DNA of 64,000 nt from an uncultured virus (IMG/VR IMGVR_UViG_3300027749_000091) (Duplodnaviria; Heunggongvirae; Uroviricota; Caudoviricetes): IMG/VR virus record IMGVR_UViG_3300027749_000091. One strand, written 5' to 3'. Position 1 is the first letter of the stretch; every line of letters starts with the position of its first letter. The position numbers and the translations under genes were made by a program. Shown piece after piece: positions 8,072 through 23,028 of this stretch. The notes beneath the pieces are model-generated. The model was not told where the DNA came from and did not search any database. It saw nothing but the letters and a program-made list of their open reading frames with translations.

Positions 8072-8100
8072 TTGCACAAGTTAATTACTTATGATCTAAT
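8072..8100 (+). promoter_or_regulatory. Sigma70-type promoter of the early region
   Basis: TTGCAC-17 bp-TCTAAT with a TGn extension. Confidence 0.6.
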
Positions 8101-8155
8101 GGTGTTTCATGCAATACATGACAGAAGTTAAACACAATAGATAAAAGGGTTCGAG

Positions 8156-8323
8156 ATGAAAACAACAGTTAAAGAAGCAGATAAATTGGCAATTGCTTTT
8201 TACCATGCAGCAATAGCTCAGGGATTAACAGAAGAAAAAGCCCAAATGCTTTTAAACAATGTTTGGGACGTAATGGTTCACGGAAAGCCCCAAGAAGAAC
8301 AGTTACCTAGCCAATTTTATTAA
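8156..8323 (+). CDS. Small early hypothetical protein (55 aa; absent from ORF track)
   Basis: Open frame ATG8156 to TAA8323 (MKTTVKEADKLAIAF...), directly before hammerhead 1. Confidence 0.6.
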   Translation: MKTTVKEADKLAIAFYHAAIAQGLTEEKAQMLLNNVWDVMVHGKPQEEQLPSQFY

Positions 8324-8326
8324 CTA

Positions 8327-8378
8327 GATCGAAACGGGTTCGCGCCCGTCTTAGCGTATTGCGCTAACTGATGAGATC
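8327..8378 (+). ncRNA. Hammerhead ribozyme, type II (copy 1)
   Basis: GAUC-GAAA-CGGG(uucgcg)CCCG-UC^-UUAGCG(uauug)CGCUAA-CUGAUGA-GAUC. All core nucleotides and three stems present; predicted cut after C8350. Confidence 0.93.
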
Positions 8379-8397
8379 AATTAACTTAGAGGAAATT

Positions 8398-8751
8398 ATG
8401 AAATTAAACTACAAGGCTTTTTGCTTTTCCTGTAAGCAAGGGGAACATAACATTCCCGCCCAATGGTATTTAACAGGCCACAACGGAAATAAACCTTTTC
8501 GCGGGTATGTTTGTGGAGATCATTACGAGATGATGGCTAATGATGGCATAGTAACTAATGCGCGCTGGATTGACATTAATGCTATCACCAGCTATTACAC
8601 CGCTTACAGTAATTTTGACCATATGATTCGCGCCTATATCGGGACACCTTATACCCCAACATTAAGGCCTGATGTAGAGCCTGATCTAGCTATTTTAAAG
8701 CGCGCATTTAATGACCGCATGACCGAATTAGGACAAGAAAACCGCGCATAG
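8398..8751 (+). CDS. Early hypothetical protein with possible Zn-binding motif, flanked by hammerheads
   Basis: RBS AGAGGA then ATG8398. Contains CFSC...CGDH. Confidence 0.7.
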   Translation: MKLNYKAFCFSCKQGEHNIPAQWYLTGHNGNKPFRGYVCGDHYEMMANDGIVTNARWIDINAITSYYTAYSNFDHMIRAYIGTPYTPTLRPDVEPDLAILKRAFNDRMTELGQENRA

Positions 8752-8802
8752 ATCGAAACCCGCGCAAGCGGGTCTAAGGGTTTAGCCCTTACTGATGAGA
8801 TC
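8751..8802 (+). ncRNA. Hammerhead ribozyme, type II (copy 2)
   Basis: GAUC-GAAA-CCCGC(gcaa)GCGGG-UC^-UAAGGG(uuuag)CCCUUA-CUGAUGA-GAUC. Stems differ from copy 1 but pair fully; predicted cut after C8774. Confidence 0.93.
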
Positions 8803-8821
8803 AATTAACTTAGAGGAAATT

Positions 8822-9025
8822 ATGCAAACAATTCAAAAGATTACAGAAAAACAAGCATTAGAAATGTATGACGATATGCTGGACGATTGCTACGGCGAGG
8901 TTAATGTTTGCGGGTATACCTACACCGCTAGCTATGCTCTAGAAGAATTGGACCCTATTGCCTATCGTTGTGGATTTAATGACTATATGGCAAACCTTGA
9001 AGATGAATACGAAATCGAGGATTAA
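8822..9025 (+). CDS. Small acidic early hypothetical protein
   Basis: RBS AGAGGA then ATG8822. YDDMLDDCYG...DPIAYRCGFNDY. Confidence 0.7.
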   Translation: MQTIQKITEKQALEMYDDMLDDCYGEVNVCGYTYTASYALEELDPIAYRCGFNDYMANLEDEYEIED

Positions 9026-9027
9026 TT

Positions 9028-9083
9028 AGTGCTGCCTGATAGGCGCTTAGATTAGGCGCTTATCGGATTATCACTTGATAGTC
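9028..9083 (+). ncRNA. Candidate structured RNA (two hairpins plus pseudoknot)
   Basis: 14-bp hairpin 9036-9066 and 6-bp hairpin 9067-9082. Loop ACU is complementary to upstream AGU at 9028. Confidence 0.5.
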
Positions 9084-9106
9084 GATAACTTAGAGGATTT
9101 ATAAAA

Positions 9107-10248
9107 ATGCGTGAAATTTATACTTTTTACTACAAGCTAGCTAACGGGCTTACCGATCAGGTGCAATTTAGGGCAGTCAGCCTAGATGATGCGCTTAATA
9201 GCTGGTATTCATTTATTTTGGAAAACCGCTTAGACGTAGTGGATTTTGACCACGAAGCCGAAGCAATCGAGGAAGAACGGGAGTTTTAAAAATGAGAAAA
9301 CTATATATAGCCAAGGGTTACAACTCTTGGAATAACAAGGAATTACATAGAGCTTTTAAAACTGAAAAAGAGGCCAACCAATTTATGAACGGGCTTACAG
9401 ACCCTCATTTAGTAGTTATGAGCTACAACACCACCACGCAACTAGTCAACACCTTATTAGGCAATCAAGGGGTAACAGCATGAACCACTACCAGCGATTT
9501 AACTACACACTAGCCCGCGCTTATGCTCGCAAGGAAATCAGCGCGAAACAGTTAACCGCATTAATAGCCATATATAGGGGGTTTAAATGAATTATTTTTA
9601 TGATAATGACGCGCACCATTTACAAGTTTATGAGGGGGATTTGCTTTTAATAGAGATTCCCTACTGCGATCCCATGACCGAGCAAGAGGCAGAACAATTA
9701 GCCATTGAATTATTCAACCAATCAAAAGAGGGGGTTTAAATGAATACATTAAGAGATCGTTTGGCAGTATCTCAAAACCTATCAGATGACAATTTAGGGC
9801 TATTTGCATGGCTTAAGGGGTATAGGTTATGCACTGAGGACTGCCAAGAAATACGCGGAACCGCTTATTCTGGCGAAACAGTATCCCATGCAGTAGAGGA
9901 TTTTTTAAACGCTTACGAGGCTTAGGGGGAAAAATGGAAGATTTTACAGGGCAGGGCATTCTAGAGGACGCGTATTCATTTGATAGGCCAGCGCATATCG
10001 TGGGGAACGCGCTTTTAAACGGGTTTATCCGCGCCGGGTATACCAAAGAACAGGCCATAAACCTATTCTATTCTAAGGCCGTTAGGTGGGCATTAGATGG
10101 CGCACTAGGGGAACACCTAGAAGAGATCGGGTTCCAATACGGGCAGATTATGGCGCAGGAATACACGCCCGAGGAATTCAACTACCCATTACAACCCGAT
10201 CAAAAGATTGCGCTTATGCAGCATAACCGTATTGAGGAAAAAGCATAA
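9107..10248 (+). other. Cluster of short tandem early ORFs (9107-9289, 9292-9483, 9480-9590, 9587-9739, 9740-9925, 9934-10248)
   Basis: Abutting ORFs with purine-rich RBSs. No function recognised. Confidence 0.6.
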
Positions 10249-10832
10249 TGAAAATTTTAGTGGCTTGTGAGTTTTCTGGTGTTGTAAGGGACGCATTTTC
10301 ATCATTAGGTCATTACGCTATGAGTTGCGATATTTTGCCCACGGAAAAAAATGGTAATCATTATCAAGGCGACATACGAGATGTATTGGAATGGGATTGG
10401 GACTTAATGATAGCCCACCCACCATGCACATATTTATCTAATGCTGGTGCTAGGCATTTATACCCAAAAAAAGTATTAAATAAAAATAGGCTAGCAAAAG
10501 GATTGGAAGCTAAAGATTTTTTTATGACTTTGTATAATGCTCCAATATTAAAAATATGTATTGAGAATCCAATTCCCTCAAAAATATTTGAATTGCCTAA
10601 ATATAACCAAATAATTCAACCCTATGAATTTGGACACCCTTTTAAGAAAAAAACGTGCTTATGGCTTAGGGGGCTTGAGCCCCTTATTCCCACGCAAATT
10701 TTAGAGGAAAGGCAAAGCAGCAAAATAGCCGGAAATTGGTTCAACAAAGGCGGAAAAGATAGGCAAAAAAATCGTGCAAAAACGTTTGATGGTATTGCGG
10801 AAGCTATGGCAACCCAATGGGGAAACCTGTAA
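10248..10832 (+). CDS. Short phage-type DNA cytosine methyltransferase-like protein
   Basis: MKILVACEFSG (motif I-like), AHPPC catalytic motif, ENP, and KKTCLWL. Confidence 0.75.
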   Translation: MKILVACEFSGVVRDAFSSLGHYAMSCDILPTEKNGNHYQGDIRDVLEWDWDLMIAHPPCTYLSNAGARHLYPKKVLNKNRLAKGLEAKDFFMTLYNAPILKICIENPIPSKIFELPKYNQIIQPYEFGHPFKKKTCLWLRGLEPLIPTQILEERQSSKIAGNWFNKGGKDRQKNRAKTFDGIAEAMATQWGNL

Positions 10833-10889
10833 AAGTTACCCTGAAATGCCTCATTTAAGGGGGGTATTTTGGAGTAGGGTTTACCCTAT
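10831..10889 (+). ncRNA. Second instance of the 9028-9083 RNA architecture, or a terminator/operator region
   Basis: AAA-GUUAC, then a 12-bp hairpin 10841-10872, then hairpin GUAGGG(uuua)CCCUAU. Confidence 0.35.
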
Positions 10890-18300: not shown

Positions 18301-18475
18301 AACTGAACCCGTTTGGTGGGCGCACCTAGCCTACCTAGGTGAGCCTTCAACTGAACCCTCTTTGGAGCCACAGCACCCGCCAGCCGCTCGTAGAATCGGT
18401 GCTAGCTTCGCCGCCGATATATGCACTATTCCGTCTACTACCCCCAGTAGTGCTGATACCTAACCCGCTGGTGTA
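18301..18475 (-). ncRNA. Candidate GC-rich structured non-coding element
   Basis: Stems CACCUAG/CUAGGUG, AUCGG/CCGAU, GCACUA/UAGUGC and CCAGC/GCUGG. Direct repeat AACTGAACCC at 18301 and 18349. Confidence 0.4.
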
Positions 18476-18504
18476 TTTGAAGCCGCCCAGATTAGACAGC
18501 AGAA

Positions 18505-19223: not shown

Positions 19224-19301
19224 AATAGTTGAAAGAAAGTGGGTATAACCTATTTACAATTATTCATTCATGGATTATATTCCCAATCAGAGGAGAGGCA
19301 A

Positions 19302-20156
19302 ATGAAAAAGGTGTGTGTAGTTAATTTCTGGGATGGCGCGTTCGATGGGGACTTTTTTGAGTTCTTTTTCCGCACTGCCTTTGACGGCATAGAATATGTA
19401 GATAGCCCGCATGAAGCTGACGTAGTTATTAGTTCCGTATTTGGACATACACAGACCGACCCTGCAAAAACAATTATGTATATTGGCGAGAATGTACGTC
19501 CTAATTACATGGGATACAACCACTCCCTTTCATTTGATCACGATACCTATGGTGGACGTAATTTTCGTTTACCTTTATGGTGGTCACGCCTTGCATGGGA
19601 TGGATTTACACAAAAGCCCCGCAAACAGAATTCCCACAATCATGGATACGAAGACCTTATATCCATTGATTCCCTAACAAACGGGCGCACTCTTGATTTG
19701 AGCCAGAAGACTAAGTTCTGCGCCATGATTGCTGGGAACCCTGAAGGTCTGCGGATCAACTTGTACAACTCACTGCACAAGTACAAACCAGTAGACGGGT
19801 ACGGGCTTATGTTTGGCAACTCATTACGCCAATCTAAGTTTGATATTTTGCCTGAGTATAAGTTTTGCTTATGCCCAGAGAATTCGGTTTATGACGGCTA
19901 TGTAACTGAGAAACTGATTGACGCATACGCGGGCGGCACTGTGCCTATTTATGGCGGCGATGTATCGGTGTCCGAAGACTTTAACCACAACGCATTTTTA
20001 AACTATCAAGAAATCAAAGATATGGAAAAGTTTGTAGAACACGTTTCTTTTTTTGACCGCAACACAGAAGCATACCGAGCTGTATATGAAAGGCCTTTAC
20101 TGGACGAAGCGCCAAGTCTTGACGGCGCAATTAAATTTATAAGGAGCATTGTATGA
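19302..20156 (+). CDS. Glycosyltransferase family 10 (alpha-1,3-fucosyltransferase-like)
   Basis: Signature YKFCLCPENS..DGYVTEKL.DAY..GTVPIY.G. RBS GAGGAG before ATG19302. Confidence 0.88.
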   Translation: MKKVCVVNFWDGAFDGDFFEFFFRTAFDGIEYVDSPHEADVVISSVFGHTQTDPAKTIMYIGENVRPNYMGYNHSLSFDHDTYGGRNFRLPLWWSRLAWDGFTQKPRKQNSHNHGYEDLISIDSLTNGRTLDLSQKTKFCAMIAGNPEGLRINLYNSLHKYKPVDGYGLMFGNSLRQSKFDILPEYKFCLCPENSVYDGYVTEKLIDAYAGGTVPIYGGDVSVSEDFNHNAFLNYQEIKDMEKFVEHVSFFDRNTEAYRAVYERPLLDEAPSLDGAIKFIRSIV

Positions 20157-20365
20157 AGATAAAAACAAAACTACTTAAAGAAAAAAAAGATGGCTCGGCT
20201 ATTTGCCAACTTGATTTAGATAGGGAAGCTAAAGACTGGTTAATAGGTGAGGGGTTTGTATCCGTGCTAAGTAAAGCATTGGGAGTGTCAGAGTCATTTG
20301 CAAAGAAACAGCCTAAACGAATAAGAGAACTAGTAAAAGATTTAGATATGGACGGGCGTTGTTGA
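20153..20365 (+). CDS. Small hypothetical protein
   Basis: 70 aa, ATGA overlap with the GT10 gene. Confidence 0.55.
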   Translation: MKIKTKLLKEKKDGSAICQLDLDREAKDWLIGEGFVSVLSKALGVSESFAKKQPKRIRELVKDLDMDGRC

Positions 20366-21234
20366 TGAAATCTAAGTACGGCATACAGCACCCACACTCG
20401 CCTGTAATGGAGTTAACTACTATGGTTGGCTGCCCGCTGATGTGTTCATTTTGCCCGCAAGAGAACCTACGGGACAACTACGGCGATAAGGCCAAGTACA
20501 TGAAGCCAATGGATTTGGTAACGGTGTTATGTAAGTTACCAAAGAACACCCGTATAGATTTTTCAGGCATGAGCGAGCCTTGGGCTAACCCAGATTGCAC
20601 GACTATGCTAGAAGAAGTTATATACATGGGCTTTAATGTGGCGATTTATACAACCCTGTACGGCATGACAAACGAAGATGCCCGCAAGGTTAAGAAGTTA
20701 TTAGAAGATCATCCTAAGCAAGTAGAAGTAATTATGTTTCATTTGCCTGATTCCAACGGCAACATGAAAGGCTGGAAGTATTCAGAAGAATGGGTAGAGT
20801 CGCTAAAGATAATGACAGAGCTTGAGCTGCCTTGTGGGTTTAACGCCATGACTATGGACGGATCAGGTAAGGTTCATGCTGATCTTCAGGAAATGATTGG
20901 CGATTTACCCGGCTGGAAAGGCCATACACGGGCAGATAGCCTAAAGATAGAGCAAGTAGGCGAACAGGCACTAAGCCTTACACCACGCCATGACTTTGCC
21001 TTAACTTGCGCATCTACACCGTTTTACGACCGCAACGTCTTGCTACCTAATGGCGATGTGGTGTTGTGCTGTATGGACTACAACTTAAAGCACGTTATAG
21101 GGAACTTACTAACCCAAACTTATGACGAGATATTTGCGGGTAAACCACTACTTGATTTGATTGCTATGAACGAGAAGCCTGAGTTTAACAAGTGCAGTAT
21201 ATGTAAGTCGTGTGATAACGTGAGGAAAATATGA
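20359..21234 (+). CDS. Radical SAM protein with SPASM/Twitch C-terminal domain
   Basis: CxxxCxxC (CPLMCSFC), F.GMSEP; C-terminal C...NGDVVLCCMD...IGN...CKSC. Confidence 0.88.
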   Translation: MLMKSKYGIQHPHSPVMELTTMVGCPLMCSFCPQENLRDNYGDKAKYMKPMDLVTVLCKLPKNTRIDFSGMSEPWANPDCTTMLEEVIYMGFNVAIYTTLYGMTNEDARKVKKLLEDHPKQVEVIMFHLPDSNGNMKGWKYSEEWVESLKIMTELELPCGFNAMTMDGSGKVHADLQEMIGDLPGWKGHTRADSLKIEQVGEQALSLTPRHDFALTCASTPFYDRNVLLPNGDVVLCCMDYNLKHVIGNLLTQTYDEIFAGKPLLDLIAMNEKPEFNKCSICKSCDNVRKI

Positions 21235-21482
21235 GAGAAGAATTTTTAGCATGGGCAAAGAAAAAGAGATTATTAGAAGAGGGGAATTTAGAATCAACAG
21301 ATCATATGGTTGGTTGGCTATGGATTACTTGGCAAACAGCATGGAGAGTGGGCGCCGCAAGCCATAAACCCACAATGGATAAGTTGCGCATGGAACGCGA
21401 TGCTTATGAACAAGAAATACAAAAAACACTTACACAGAAATATTATTTTGAGGCTTTGGCAGAACAAAACGAAAAATTATGA
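21231..21482 (+). CDS. Small hypothetical protein
   Basis: 83 aa, coupled to both neighbours. Confidence 0.5.
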   Translation: MREEFLAWAKKKRLLEEGNLESTDHMVGWLWITWQTAWRVGAASHKPTMDKLRMERDAYEQEIQKTLTQKYYFEALAEQNEKL

Positions 21483-22210
21483 TTGATCAACTAAAAGAAC
21501 TAGTAAAAGCGCTGCGCCCTGTAAAGACTAAGTTTGATCTTATACGGATAGGTGGGGTTAATGACGGCGGGTACTTAATACCTAATGATTTAGAAGGTAT
21601 AGCTGCCTGTTTCTCACCCGGCGTTGCTGATACAGCTAGTTTTGAGGTAGACCTATGTAAGCGTGGTATTGGATCACACCTTGCAGACGGGTCGGTTGAC
21701 GGCGCACCTAAAGGTATTACGCCATTATCATTTACCAAGAAGTATCTAGACGGATACAACGATGAGAACAACATAACTTTATTTTCTTGGGTATTGGGGA
21801 CAGATGCGTATCAGTTTGGTGAGGACTTGATTCTTCAGATGGATATTGAAGGCGCCGAATATGCAACTATCATAGCTACCCCGCTATGTGTATTAAAAAA
21901 GTTTAGGATTATTTGTGTAGAAATTCACGACACCGATGCGTGGTTTAATCCAATTGCTTGGAACACCGTAGCAACATTCTTTGCCAAACTAACAGAAGAC
22001 TTTTACGTAGTGCATAACCACCCAAACAATAACTGTGGGACTGTAGATGCTAATGGATTCTTTTTACCCCGAGTATTTGAATTAACCCTATTACGTAAAG
22101 ACAGAAGTGAGGCGCTTGGTTTTGTAGAAGACTTGCCTCACCCATTAGATGCCCGCAACGTACTTGATAAAGACGTATTAAAACTACCAAAGGAATGGTA
22201 TGGAGCTTAG
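21479..22210 (+). CDS. FkbM-like SAM-dependent methyltransferase
   Basis: RIGG.NDGGY, SPGV...SFE, LQMDIEGAEY, VEIH, H.HPNN. Confidence 0.8.
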   Translation: MIDQLKELVKALRPVKTKFDLIRIGGVNDGGYLIPNDLEGIAACFSPGVADTASFEVDLCKRGIGSHLADGSVDGAPKGITPLSFTKKYLDGYNDENNITLFSWVLGTDAYQFGEDLILQMDIEGAEYATIIATPLCVLKKFRIICVEIHDTDAWFNPIAWNTVATFFAKLTEDFYVVHNHPNNNCGTVDANGFFLPRVFELTLLRKDRSEALGFVEDLPHPLDARNVLDKDVLKLPKEWYGA

Positions 22211-22361
22211 AGACGAATTTGCTAAATCAATTATGGCTGGCATTATTGCGGCTGATTGGAAATTTGATTTGACTGAAAAGAAGTGGGACGAGATTGCCGC
22301 TAAACGTGCCTATGAATTAGCCGATGCCATGATTAAAGAGAGGGAGATTGGGAATGTCTGA
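22200..22361 (+). CDS. Small phage protein of the RD.FA...AY..ADAM type (absent from ORF track)
   Basis: MELRDEFAKSIMAG...AYELADAMIKER, similar to 11764-11940. Confidence 0.6.
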   Translation: MELRDEFAKSIMAGIIAADWKFDLTEKKWDEIAAKRAYELADAMIKEREIGNV

Positions 22362-23028
22362 GCGCATTATGGTTATTACCCCGACTACTGCGAAAAATAC
22401 AGTAAAGAAAGCTATTGAAAGTGTTAAGGCGCAAACAATAGCAACAGATCATTTAATTGTGGCTGATGGGATAGATACGGATTTTTCGATTATGCCTTAT
22501 TTTATGAGGCTACCTGAAAACGTAGGGGGCAATGGTTGGTATGGACACAGAGTTTATGCGGCTATGCCACTAATGGTAAACGCTGATTACATTTTATTTT
22601 TAGATGAAGATAATTGGTTTGAGCCAAACCATGTAGAGACGATGCTTAACAAGATTAAAAGTAAAGATTTAATGTGGGCTTATAGTTTAAGGAGAATTTG
22701 TGATGAATCAGGACAATATGTTTGTGACGATGATTGCGAGTCACTCGGTCGCTACCCGGCGTTTTATGACCATTCTCTCAATTTTGTTGATACTAATTGT
22801 TATTGCTTTCGGCGTGAATTCTTGGTTACTGTGGCACACAGTTTTTATGGTCAGTGGGGTGCAGATCGGCCCTTCTATAAAGCTGCCAGCACAGGCTTGC
22901 CTGCCTTCGGATGCACAGGAGAGGCTACGGTTAATTACCGAGCGCCCGAAAGATTACTTAAGATGTTTGCAGAAGGAAACAAACTAATGAAAGATGCATA
23001 TAAACCCTTACCTTGGAGGTTGAAATGA
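22354..23028 (+). CDS. Glycosyltransferase family 2-like protein
   Basis: VITPT...AIESVKAQT, LIVADG, YILFLDEDNW (DxD motif). Confidence 0.8.
   Translation: MSERIMVITPTTAKNTVKKAIESVKAQTIATDHLIVADGIDTDFSIMPYFMRLPENVGGNGWYGHRVYAAMPLMVNADYILFLDEDNWFEPNHVETMLNKIKSKDLMWAYSLRRICDESGQYVCDDDCESLGRYPAFYDHSLNFVDTNCYCFRREFLVTVAHSFYGQWGADRPFYKAASTGLPAFGCTGEATVNYRAPERLLKMFAEGNKLMKDAYKPLPWRLK

Follow-up and report, generated by a model that had tools for sequence, protein, structure and literature searches.

On the plus strand of the window, by which the whole analysed stretch of 64,000 nucleotides is meant, positions 9024-9086 contain an uncatalogued, conserved and structured phage RNA motif, and pattern scans of viral and metagenome contigs find about 90 loci with the same architecture. 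The motif consists of a long hairpin (H1) and an abutting short hairpin (H2), and the segment around the stop codon of the upstream gene has a conserved pairing with the first half of H2. Equivalent slots in front of homologous genes are held by type II hammerheads in related phages, and the motif is a plausible functional analogue of these. A two-state site for processing by a host nuclease, which would be either RNase III acting at a bulge or RNase E acting at GG|AUU, is the preferred reading, held tentatively and at somewhat less than even chances.

Layout of the element in the window

The element fills the gap between a 67-aa gene and a 60-aa gene with its ATG at 9107 (Table 1). The first-pass annotation had described here a stop codon, a structure and a ribosome binding site within TAACTTAGAGGA, laid out as in the preceding slot and lacking a hammerhead core, and this is how the sequence reads. 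Likewise, both hairpins read and fold as it had described them, with H2 directly abutting H1 without any spacer, and the presence of an RNA element at this site is confirmed. The exact 12-mer TAACTTAGAGGA occurs in the window at 8382, 8806, and 9086 only, and the first two copies follow the cores of HH1 and HH2.

Table 1. Features of the element and of the early operon around it
Feature	Position	Strand	Basis
Stop codon TAA of the upstream 67-aa gene (8822-9025)	9023..9025	+	direct reading
Region 1 (UAGUG, 9027-9031) and linker CUGC	9027..9035	+	MFE fold, covariation
H1, 14-bp hairpin with GAU loop and four G-U pairs	9036..9066	+	fold, covariation
H2, 6-bp hairpin AUUAUC(ACUU)GAUAGU (regions 2 and 3)	9067..9082	+	fold, covariation
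Spacer CGA, TAACTTAGAGGA (9086-9097) with Shine-Dalgarno AGAGGA (9092-9097)	9083..9109	+	direct reading
HH1, type II hammerhead-like motif, first slot of the same operon	8326..8378	+	core read directly
HH2, type II hammerhead-like motif, second slot	8752..8805	+	direct reading
Terminator-like hairpin GUAGGGUUUACCCUAU with U-rich tail, end of the early operon	10874-10889	+	predicted; also in L025, L026, L209

The fold of 9020-9110 reaches -26.3 kcal/mol compared to a shuffle mean of -16.9 (z = -3.52), and none of 200 shuffles equals it. This MFE fold joins AGUG 9028-9031 to CACU 9072-9075. Region 1 and the linker form the 5' strand of the lower stem of a rod, in which they pair with 9072-9075 and weakly with 9069-9070, and A9067, with which H2 begins, bulges out of this rod. 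H1 contains TAGGCGCTTA as a perfect direct repeat at 9040 and 9053 with a period of 13. Because this 10-mer is self-complementary via G-U pairs, the direct repeat and H1 are the same thing; in some relatives, the 5' arm of H1 carries AAGCGC, which breaks the direct repeat and retains the pairing.

At the element itself, neither a promoter-like nor a terminator-like site is predicted. H1 is followed by AUUAUC and H2 by CGAUAAC, neither forming a U tail, and an intrinsic terminator, which had been dismissed from the beginning, is ruled out by the missing U tract and the missing terminator-like call. The terminator-like hairpin at the end of the operon is conserved in sequence across related phage loci.

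The genome of the window phage encodes a large and a small terminase, SU10-type adaptor domains, and a capsid protein. Among the 100 ORFs of the window that encode at least 55 aa, there is no Pfam match to RNase III, dsRBD, or RNA polymerase; as neither RNase III nor dsRBD is matched in these ORFs, any nuclease acting on the element would be that of the host. At 19239-23025 (+), genes of the fucosyltransferase-like, radical SAM/SPASM, and family-2 glycosyltransferase types are clustered.

Comparison with known RNA families

At the gathering score, the 4227 models of Rfam 15 yield a single match in the window and none at the element. This match is a Betaproteobacteria-1 RNA (RF02932, 89.3 bits) at 18375-18497 (-), flanked by the genes of an MT-A70 methyltransferase and a RusA-like protein. 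Twister, twister-sister, pistol, hatchet, HDV-like, and other Rfam ribozymes give no match at E<=10 in scans of 451 and 89 nt, and ten relatives of the element have no Rfam match at E<=5. The hammerhead core CUGAUGA...GAAA is absent from 9024-9086, and no hammerhead model matches at E<=10 in the 89-nt scan. A scan of this kind did detect HH1. The sensitivity of cmscan for such short motifs is limited, as even this clear hammerhead is matched by Hammerhead_II (RF02276) with just 19.5 bits (E 0.035; gathering score 37) and in the narrow scan only. HH2 has no cmscan match at E<=10 in the 451-nt search.

RAGATH-34 (RF03103) matches in the 451-nt search with 18.3 bits compared to a gathering score of 60.7 (E 3.5). 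The alignment is weak and lies mostly over ACUUAGAG and the A-rich stretch downstream, neither the 89-nt search nor ten relatives give a match to this family, and the match is regarded as chance. The first-pass annotation had been unable to assign the RNA to any class and had named RAGATH, twister sister, pistol, and hatchet for comparison; none of them matches at the gathering score. In the literature covered, the motif is undescribed, and its core 10-mers are found in unrelated primers only; the supplements of Weinberg 2017 could contain a similar candidate without a name.

Relatives of the element

A blastn search with 8100-10300 against phage GenBank records gives no match, and the nearest record, G001, is 100% identical across the region and hence uninformative. 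The element is kept neither at the 17 non-self loci related through the upstream gene nor at the 7 loci related through the downstream gene, at which the genes overlap. A CM built from the single sequence (R1) finds nothing in 99 sources (414 kb) and nothing in five related records, and a scan for TAACTTAGAGGA..ATG returns at least 120 loci, all of them chance matches of 12-16 nt.

Relatives are found with a pattern for the arms of H1, consisting of AGGCGCTTA, 1-6 nt, and TAGGCGCT, which has 51 loci on viral contigs. After reading, 21 of these share the complete architecture and, with the window's own contig among them, comprise 17 distinct sequences; the other 30 were dropped as chance matches or ordinary terminators. 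A more specific pattern yields 68 metagenome loci and three MAG contigs assigned by record title to Burkholderiaceae, Terrimicrobiaceae, and Gemmatimonas. The resulting alignment, A2, contains 72 sequences, 69 of which are distinct; its columns 35-40, 47-55, 59-63, and 75-78 are fixed by the search patterns, and invariance in these columns is due to ascertainment.

A family CM (R2) finds copies outside this ascertainment. Four viral records contain one match to it each and G009 contains two, the second of which has a 16-bp H1 of unrelated sequence, and the CM copies number just one to two per genome of about 38 kb. The matches are strand-specific, with 55-84 bits for the sense strand and antisense echoes of the same sites at 34 bits at most. 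The copies outside the pattern ascertainment all keep the bulge at the base of H1, a UAGU or UAAGU flank, and the refolding segment. At about 777-1136 of L405, paired R2 matches were disregarded, as this region is a perfect fold-back palindrome centred near 956 with mirrored copies of the motif, which is probably an assembly artefact, and the miRNA-like Rfam matches in it are spurious.

Two conserved pairings of the same segment

Covariation in A2 supports three pairings, namely H1, H2, and a pairing of the 5' flank with the 5' arm and the loop of H2. In the combination of H1 and H2, 98.5% of the cells are paired and covariation amounts to 0.324 compared to 0.147 after shuffling; in the combination of H1 and the lower stem, 93.9% are paired and the values are 0.305 and 0.146. 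In either case 0 of 500 shuffles are as high, with the reservation that these statistics overstate independence because many of the aligned sequences are close relatives. Slid controls for H1 and H2 have 28-45% of their cells paired. This conservation on the plus strand bears out the view that the element is a genuine structured RNA.

In H1, 99.4% of the cells are paired, and the basal pairs 30-58, 31-57, and 32-56 occur as six, five, and three pair types, respectively, and all covary. Pair 34-54 is G-U in 42 and A-U in 27 of 69 sequences, so that the RNA pair is kept and the DNA repeat broken. H1 is thus conserved as a structure and not as a sequence, and it is freely replaceable: completely different H1 sequences are present in the second copy of L401 and in L463, L456 also carries another one, and copy B of L382 has a compensated core. 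The apical loops are mainly GNRA or other tetraloops. In H2, 96.4% of the cells are paired and the pairs 64-74 (AU/GC), 65-73 (GC/CG/UA/UG), and 66-72 (four types) covary.

Columns 19-23 of region 1 covary with columns 66-70, and columns 25-26 covary with 63-64. The best-supported part of this flank pairing is pair 23-66, which is GC in 30, AU in 20, GU in 11, and UA in 8 sequences and unpaired in none. Pair 19-70 is found as UA (33), AU (19), and UG (5), and pair 25-64 as UA (42), CG (8), UG (7), and AU (2). The pairs 24-65 and 27-62 are poor, and the linker columns 24 and 27 are variable. If the lower stem is continued in a fixed register into the final sense codon of the upstream gene, the support is weak, with pair 16-73 present in 20/69, 17-72 in 45/69, and 18-71 in 5/20 sequences, and no such continuation is claimed.

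Columns 25/64/74 and 23/66/72 show three-way covariation. The contact of the 5' AGU(G) with the loop of H2 that had been suggested from the window sequence is upheld by pair 23-66. It extends into the 5' arm of H2, which makes a static form of the pseudoknot suggested along with it doubtful. The stems 19-23/66-70 and 61-65/73-77 share no columns, and the flank also covaries with the H2 columns 63-64. Since region 2 covaries with region 1 as well as with region 3, and these two pairings overlap, the flank pairing and H2 are read here as two alternative folds. A static pseudoknot appears doubtful, as a loop of 1-2 nt would have to cross a 5-bp stem, which conflicts with standard H-type pseudoknot geometry.

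One of these folds is a bulged rod of 22-26 bp, and the other consists of H1 plus H2. Folding predicts the rod as the ground state: of 59 distinct sequences, 48 have an MFE helix of at least 20 bp and 47 have one of at least 22 bp, and the rod exceeds H1 plus H2 in stability in 43/58. It consists of the sequence-arbitrary upper stem of 12-16 bp, which is H1, extended by a lower stem of about 9 bp, and its 3' strand is broken by a single A or a 1x2 loop exactly at the base of H1. In divergent copies, 25-26 bp are formed, and a single nucleotide is bulged where H1 meets H2. The window copy forms a weaker rod than most, with mismatches in the linker CUGC. In a short context, its MFE fold is H1 plus H2 (-22.7, compared to -21.5 for the rod), and the rod appears only in a looser form in the longer context (-26.3), with 23 bp in three segments and two larger internal loops.

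Genomic placement and equivalence with hammerhead slots

The stop codon of the upstream gene is built into the motif. An upstream frame stays open for at least 30 codons in 67 members; the stop codon starts at columns 14-19 in 66 of these, and in 47/67 it lies inside region 1 (columns 18-19). The next ATG always follows 8-37 nt downstream of the element. The upstream genes vary and include ArdC-like, sliding-clamp-like, and other genes. The last sense codon of these unrelated genes (columns 16-18) is GCN (Ala) in 44/67 and GTT in 12/67. Between H2 and the Shine-Dalgarno sequence, most relatives (for example L340, L370, and L375) carry CCUAAC/CUAAC repeats such as ACCUAACUAACCUAA, the counterpart of which in the window is AUAACUUAG; this stretch may be a translational enhancer or a single-stranded landing pad.

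HH1 and HH2 have an open stem II (GAUC/GAUC), stand right after stop codons and ahead of the conserved ribosome binding site, and likewise overlap the stop codon. An identical copy of HH2 is present in the related phage locus L209. Their design, GATCGAAAC...CTGATGAGATC, is present in more than 123 viral contigs and seems to be under-represented in the Rfam hammerhead model. In L025, the slot of a related early operon holds a type I hammerhead with open stem I at about 487-545, and the sister locus L026 has type II hammerheads, so that different permutations occupy equivalent slots.

The motif and hammerheads occur in equivalent slots. Two copies of the motif in L335 flank a gene with 60% identity (53/89) to the one standing behind a type II hammerhead in both L209 and L167, which supports the equivalence proposed in the first-pass annotation. 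Among 63 distinct upstream regions of this gene family (74 loci in total), L428 and L430 have a type II hammerhead in the slot, and L463 (43.8 bits) and L456 (26 bits) have the motif. Elsewhere, the slot contains assorted other hairpins, hairpin pairs, or plain GC-rich hairpins, none of which matches Rfam at E<=1. Two copies of the motif that are 240 nt apart also flank a 59-aa ORF in L382.

A different recurring element is located in the same slot in L409, L411, L413, and L418, about 60-110 nt upstream of the HAYGGVC-family gene. It consists of UAGUGGAUCGCG, a GC-rich hairpin with CGCG in the loop, and CACUAA, with possible pairings in an outer stem and between loop and flank. It has no Rfam match at E<=1 and is a candidate for a further motif.

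A hammerhead core within 400 nt is found at 0 of 91 motif loci, and the motif is not found in 80 hammerhead loci. The association with hammerheads that the window had suggested is therefore not general. Motif and hammerhead are alternatives rather than companions, and the window is unusual in having both.

A putative processing site and its alternatives

In the preferred reading, the element would be one of a conserved set of mRNA structures that act in cis and occupy the gap from the stop codon of one phage gene to the ribosome binding site of the next. In its ground state, the stop-codon segment (region 1) would pair with region 2 to give the bulged rod, which a host endonuclease would cut at the discontinuity beside the base of H1. 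The upstream product would end in H1 as a barrier to 3' exonucleases. The downstream product would start at region 2 and refold with region 3 into H2, which would lie flush with the 5' end and be protective; as the first nucleotide of H2 is the bulge of the rod, a cut at the bulge would put H2 at the very 5' end. As read from the sequence, cleavage in the hammerhead slots would leave an upstream product capped at its 3' end by the hairpin of stem III and a downstream product capped at its 5' end by that of stem I. Because self-cleavage of the neighbouring type II hammerheads gives this same product architecture, hammerhead and motif could be interchangeable punctuation of a polycistronic early transcript. 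A processing site would explain both conserved pairings, the arbitrary sequence of H1, and the abutment of H1 and H2. It leaves the embedded stop codon unexplained, as a pure nuclease site does not require one. Moreover, one to two copies per genome are fewer than general punctuation would predict; other slots may hold unrelated hairpins.

Cleavage of the motif, the position of the cut, and the enzyme are all putative. RNase III is a candidate as it acts on a helix of about two turns, and the bulge would limit the cut to the 3' strand. According to a review by Nicholson (PMC3867540), an idealised Escherichia coli RNase III substrate has 22 bp, and a bulge or loop at the target leads to a single-strand cut that leaves stabilising 3' hairpins. 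The same review describes five RNase III signals in the early polycistronic RNA of T7. A mostly regular helix of about 20-22 bp is reached in 48/59 sequences, with the window copy being weaker, and the bulged A or 1x2 loop on the 3' strand at the base of H1 is a conserved distortion that may be the target. For RNase E, the second candidate, Chao 2017 (PMC5222698) gives the core RN|WUU in a single-stranded segment. The proposed cut at the conserved GG|AUU fits this core at 9065-9069 and in most relatives, but GGATT is part of the search pattern, so that its conservation is in part due to ascertainment, and copies outside the pattern have GGAUU, AGAUU, GGAUC, GGGUU, or UGAUU at the junction. In addition, both folds place GG|AUU in a helix, and RNase E has a preference for single-stranded RNA.

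The main rival to the processing site is an RNA switch that senses translation without being cleaved, which has a modest chance of being correct. A terminating ribosome would melt the lower stem, regions 2 and 3 would form H2, and this flip would couple or insulate downstream expression, for example by bringing stop codon and ribosome binding site together or by providing a standby site. Selection on two mutually exclusive pairings with three-way covariation is in line with such a switch, and the stop codon at columns 14-19, mostly inside region 1, together with the fixed proximity to the next ATG also fit it. However, with heuristic placement of the Shine-Dalgarno sequence, its mean P(unpaired) is 0.41 in rod and H2 alike (difference -0.001), its accessibility differs by more than 0.2 between the folds in only 5/67 members, and no complementarity to the anti-Shine-Dalgarno is seen in region 3. 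Furthermore, equivalent slots hold hammerheads, the sole known activity of which is cleavage, and as these also overlap the stop codon, the overlap may reflect compact modules.

It is rather unlikely that the element is a passive stabiliser or insulator, in which an uncleaved H1 or rod blocks 3' exonucleases in the manner of REP elements, Rho loading, or ribosome scanning, and H2 is a second small barrier. A very stable tetraloop hairpin of arbitrary sequence right after the stop codon would suit this function, as would the plain GC-rich hairpins in the same slot of other members of the gene family. Such a barrier does not explain why regions 1 and 3 both covary with region 2 nor why the bulge coincides with the start of H2.

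New ribozyme classes have been found earlier near hammerhead-associated genes, and the first-pass annotation had accordingly considered a functional analogue that is either a ribozyme or an element for processing or stabilisation. As a new self-cleaving class, H1, H2, and a pseudoknot of 5' flank and loop would replace the hammerhead in its slot; in a ribosome-triggered form, termination would flip the rod into the active fold of H1, H2, and flank. The shared slot, the compact size of about 60 nt, the covarying contact of loop and 5' flank, and the missing match to known families are in line with this. Nevertheless, a small ribozyme of either form is very unlikely, as there is no conserved unpaired core, with variable linker columns 24 and 27, the sequence and loops of H1 are freely replaceable, the flank pairing invades the stem of H2, which makes the full pseudoknot sterically doubtful, the predicted ground state is a plain rod, and none of the 91 loci is near a hammerhead. 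Thus, the two-state nuclease site is more likely than a pseudoknotted ribozyme. The earlier interpretation is partly supported, in that an analogue for processing or stabilisation is plausible and a catalytic one is disfavoured by the absence of a conserved unpaired core and the replaceable H1.

The put RNA of phage HK022 consists of two adjacent stem-loops that act on RNA polymerase. A put-like RNA for processive antitermination in cis would share with the motif the two abutting hairpins, the position inside the early operon upstream of its terminator-like site, and the one to two copies per genome, but it is highly improbable given the fixed placement between stop codon and ribosome binding site and the pairing of stop segment and region 2, which are not known as features of put RNAs, and given two copies 240 nt apart around one small ORF. 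Finally, a DNA-level element on the TAGGCGCTTA repeat (operator, iteron, or recombination site) or a chance hairpin can practically be dismissed: the 10-nt repeat is perfect, and about one such repeat or 14-bp G-U-tolerant hairpin is estimated to be expected per 64 kb, but the repeat is broken in 27/69 relatives by G34 to A with the pairing kept, the G-U pairs make the structure strand-specific, compensatory changes occur throughout, and the same architecture recurs at about 90 loci.

Significance

The motif adds an RNA supported by covariation to the catalogue of phage RNAs, with the unusual property of two conserved and exclusive pairings, one of which has the upstream stop codon built into it. 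Homologous genes that stand behind either the motif or a type II hammerhead provide a natural experiment on the purpose of phage hammerheads. If the motif is a nuclease site with hammerhead-like products, this would support the long-standing hypothesis that hammerheads in phages serve to divide polycistronic RNA into messages for single genes with hairpins at their ends. If it senses termination or cleaves itself instead, it would be a new kind of cis-regulatory RNA. Operon design makes use of synthetic insulator parts, and compact modules reaching from stop codon to ribosome binding site are the natural counterparts of these.

Comparison with known systems

The closest parallel to the proposed processing site is drawn with the RNase III signals of T7 early mRNA (R1.1 type). 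Both T7 signals and motif are located between a stop codon and the next ribosome binding site of a polycistronic early phage transcript. In addition, each forms an irregular hairpin about two helical turns in length, in which the helix is distorted at the presumed target, and a single-strand cut, which is proposed for the motif, would leave a stabilising 3' hairpin (PMC3867540). There is no sequence relation between them; the upper stem of the motif is longer (12-16 bp), and its helix is interrupted by a 1-nt bulge or 1x2 loop in place of a larger internal loop. Unlike the T7 signals, the motif has the stop codon inside the lower stem and a conserved third segment that would refold the 3' product into a 5'-terminal hairpin, and its cleavage is only proposed. 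In contrast to T7, no T7-like RNA polymerase was found in the phages carrying the motif.

Hammerheads flank single genes in prophages, as stated in Perreault 2011 (PMC3088659). The motif can do so as well, and the predicted products of both have the same hairpin-capped ends. Type II hammerheads (RF02276) and the motif share slot and layout in the window and stand ahead of homologous genes in relatives; the motif differs in having neither the CUGAUGA...GAAA core nor an Rfam match, and self-cleavage is unsupported for it.

The logic of the trp leader, in which regions 1:2 and 2:3 form alternative pairings and a stop codon lies in region 1, resembles that of the motif. Both have three segments, two exclusive pairings, and the stop codon in the first segment, and the position of the ribosome could choose between the folds. 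In contrast to attenuators, the motif has no terminator, no 3:4 hairpin, and no U tract, it follows full-length genes instead of a leader peptide, and it has no predicted effect on Shine-Dalgarno accessibility.

REP elements are repeats of host chromosomes that are present in many copies. REP-type stabilisers and the motif have in common a stable hairpin just past the stop codon within an operon, and the motif is distinguished from them by its one to two copies per phage and by its additional, conserved alternative pairings.
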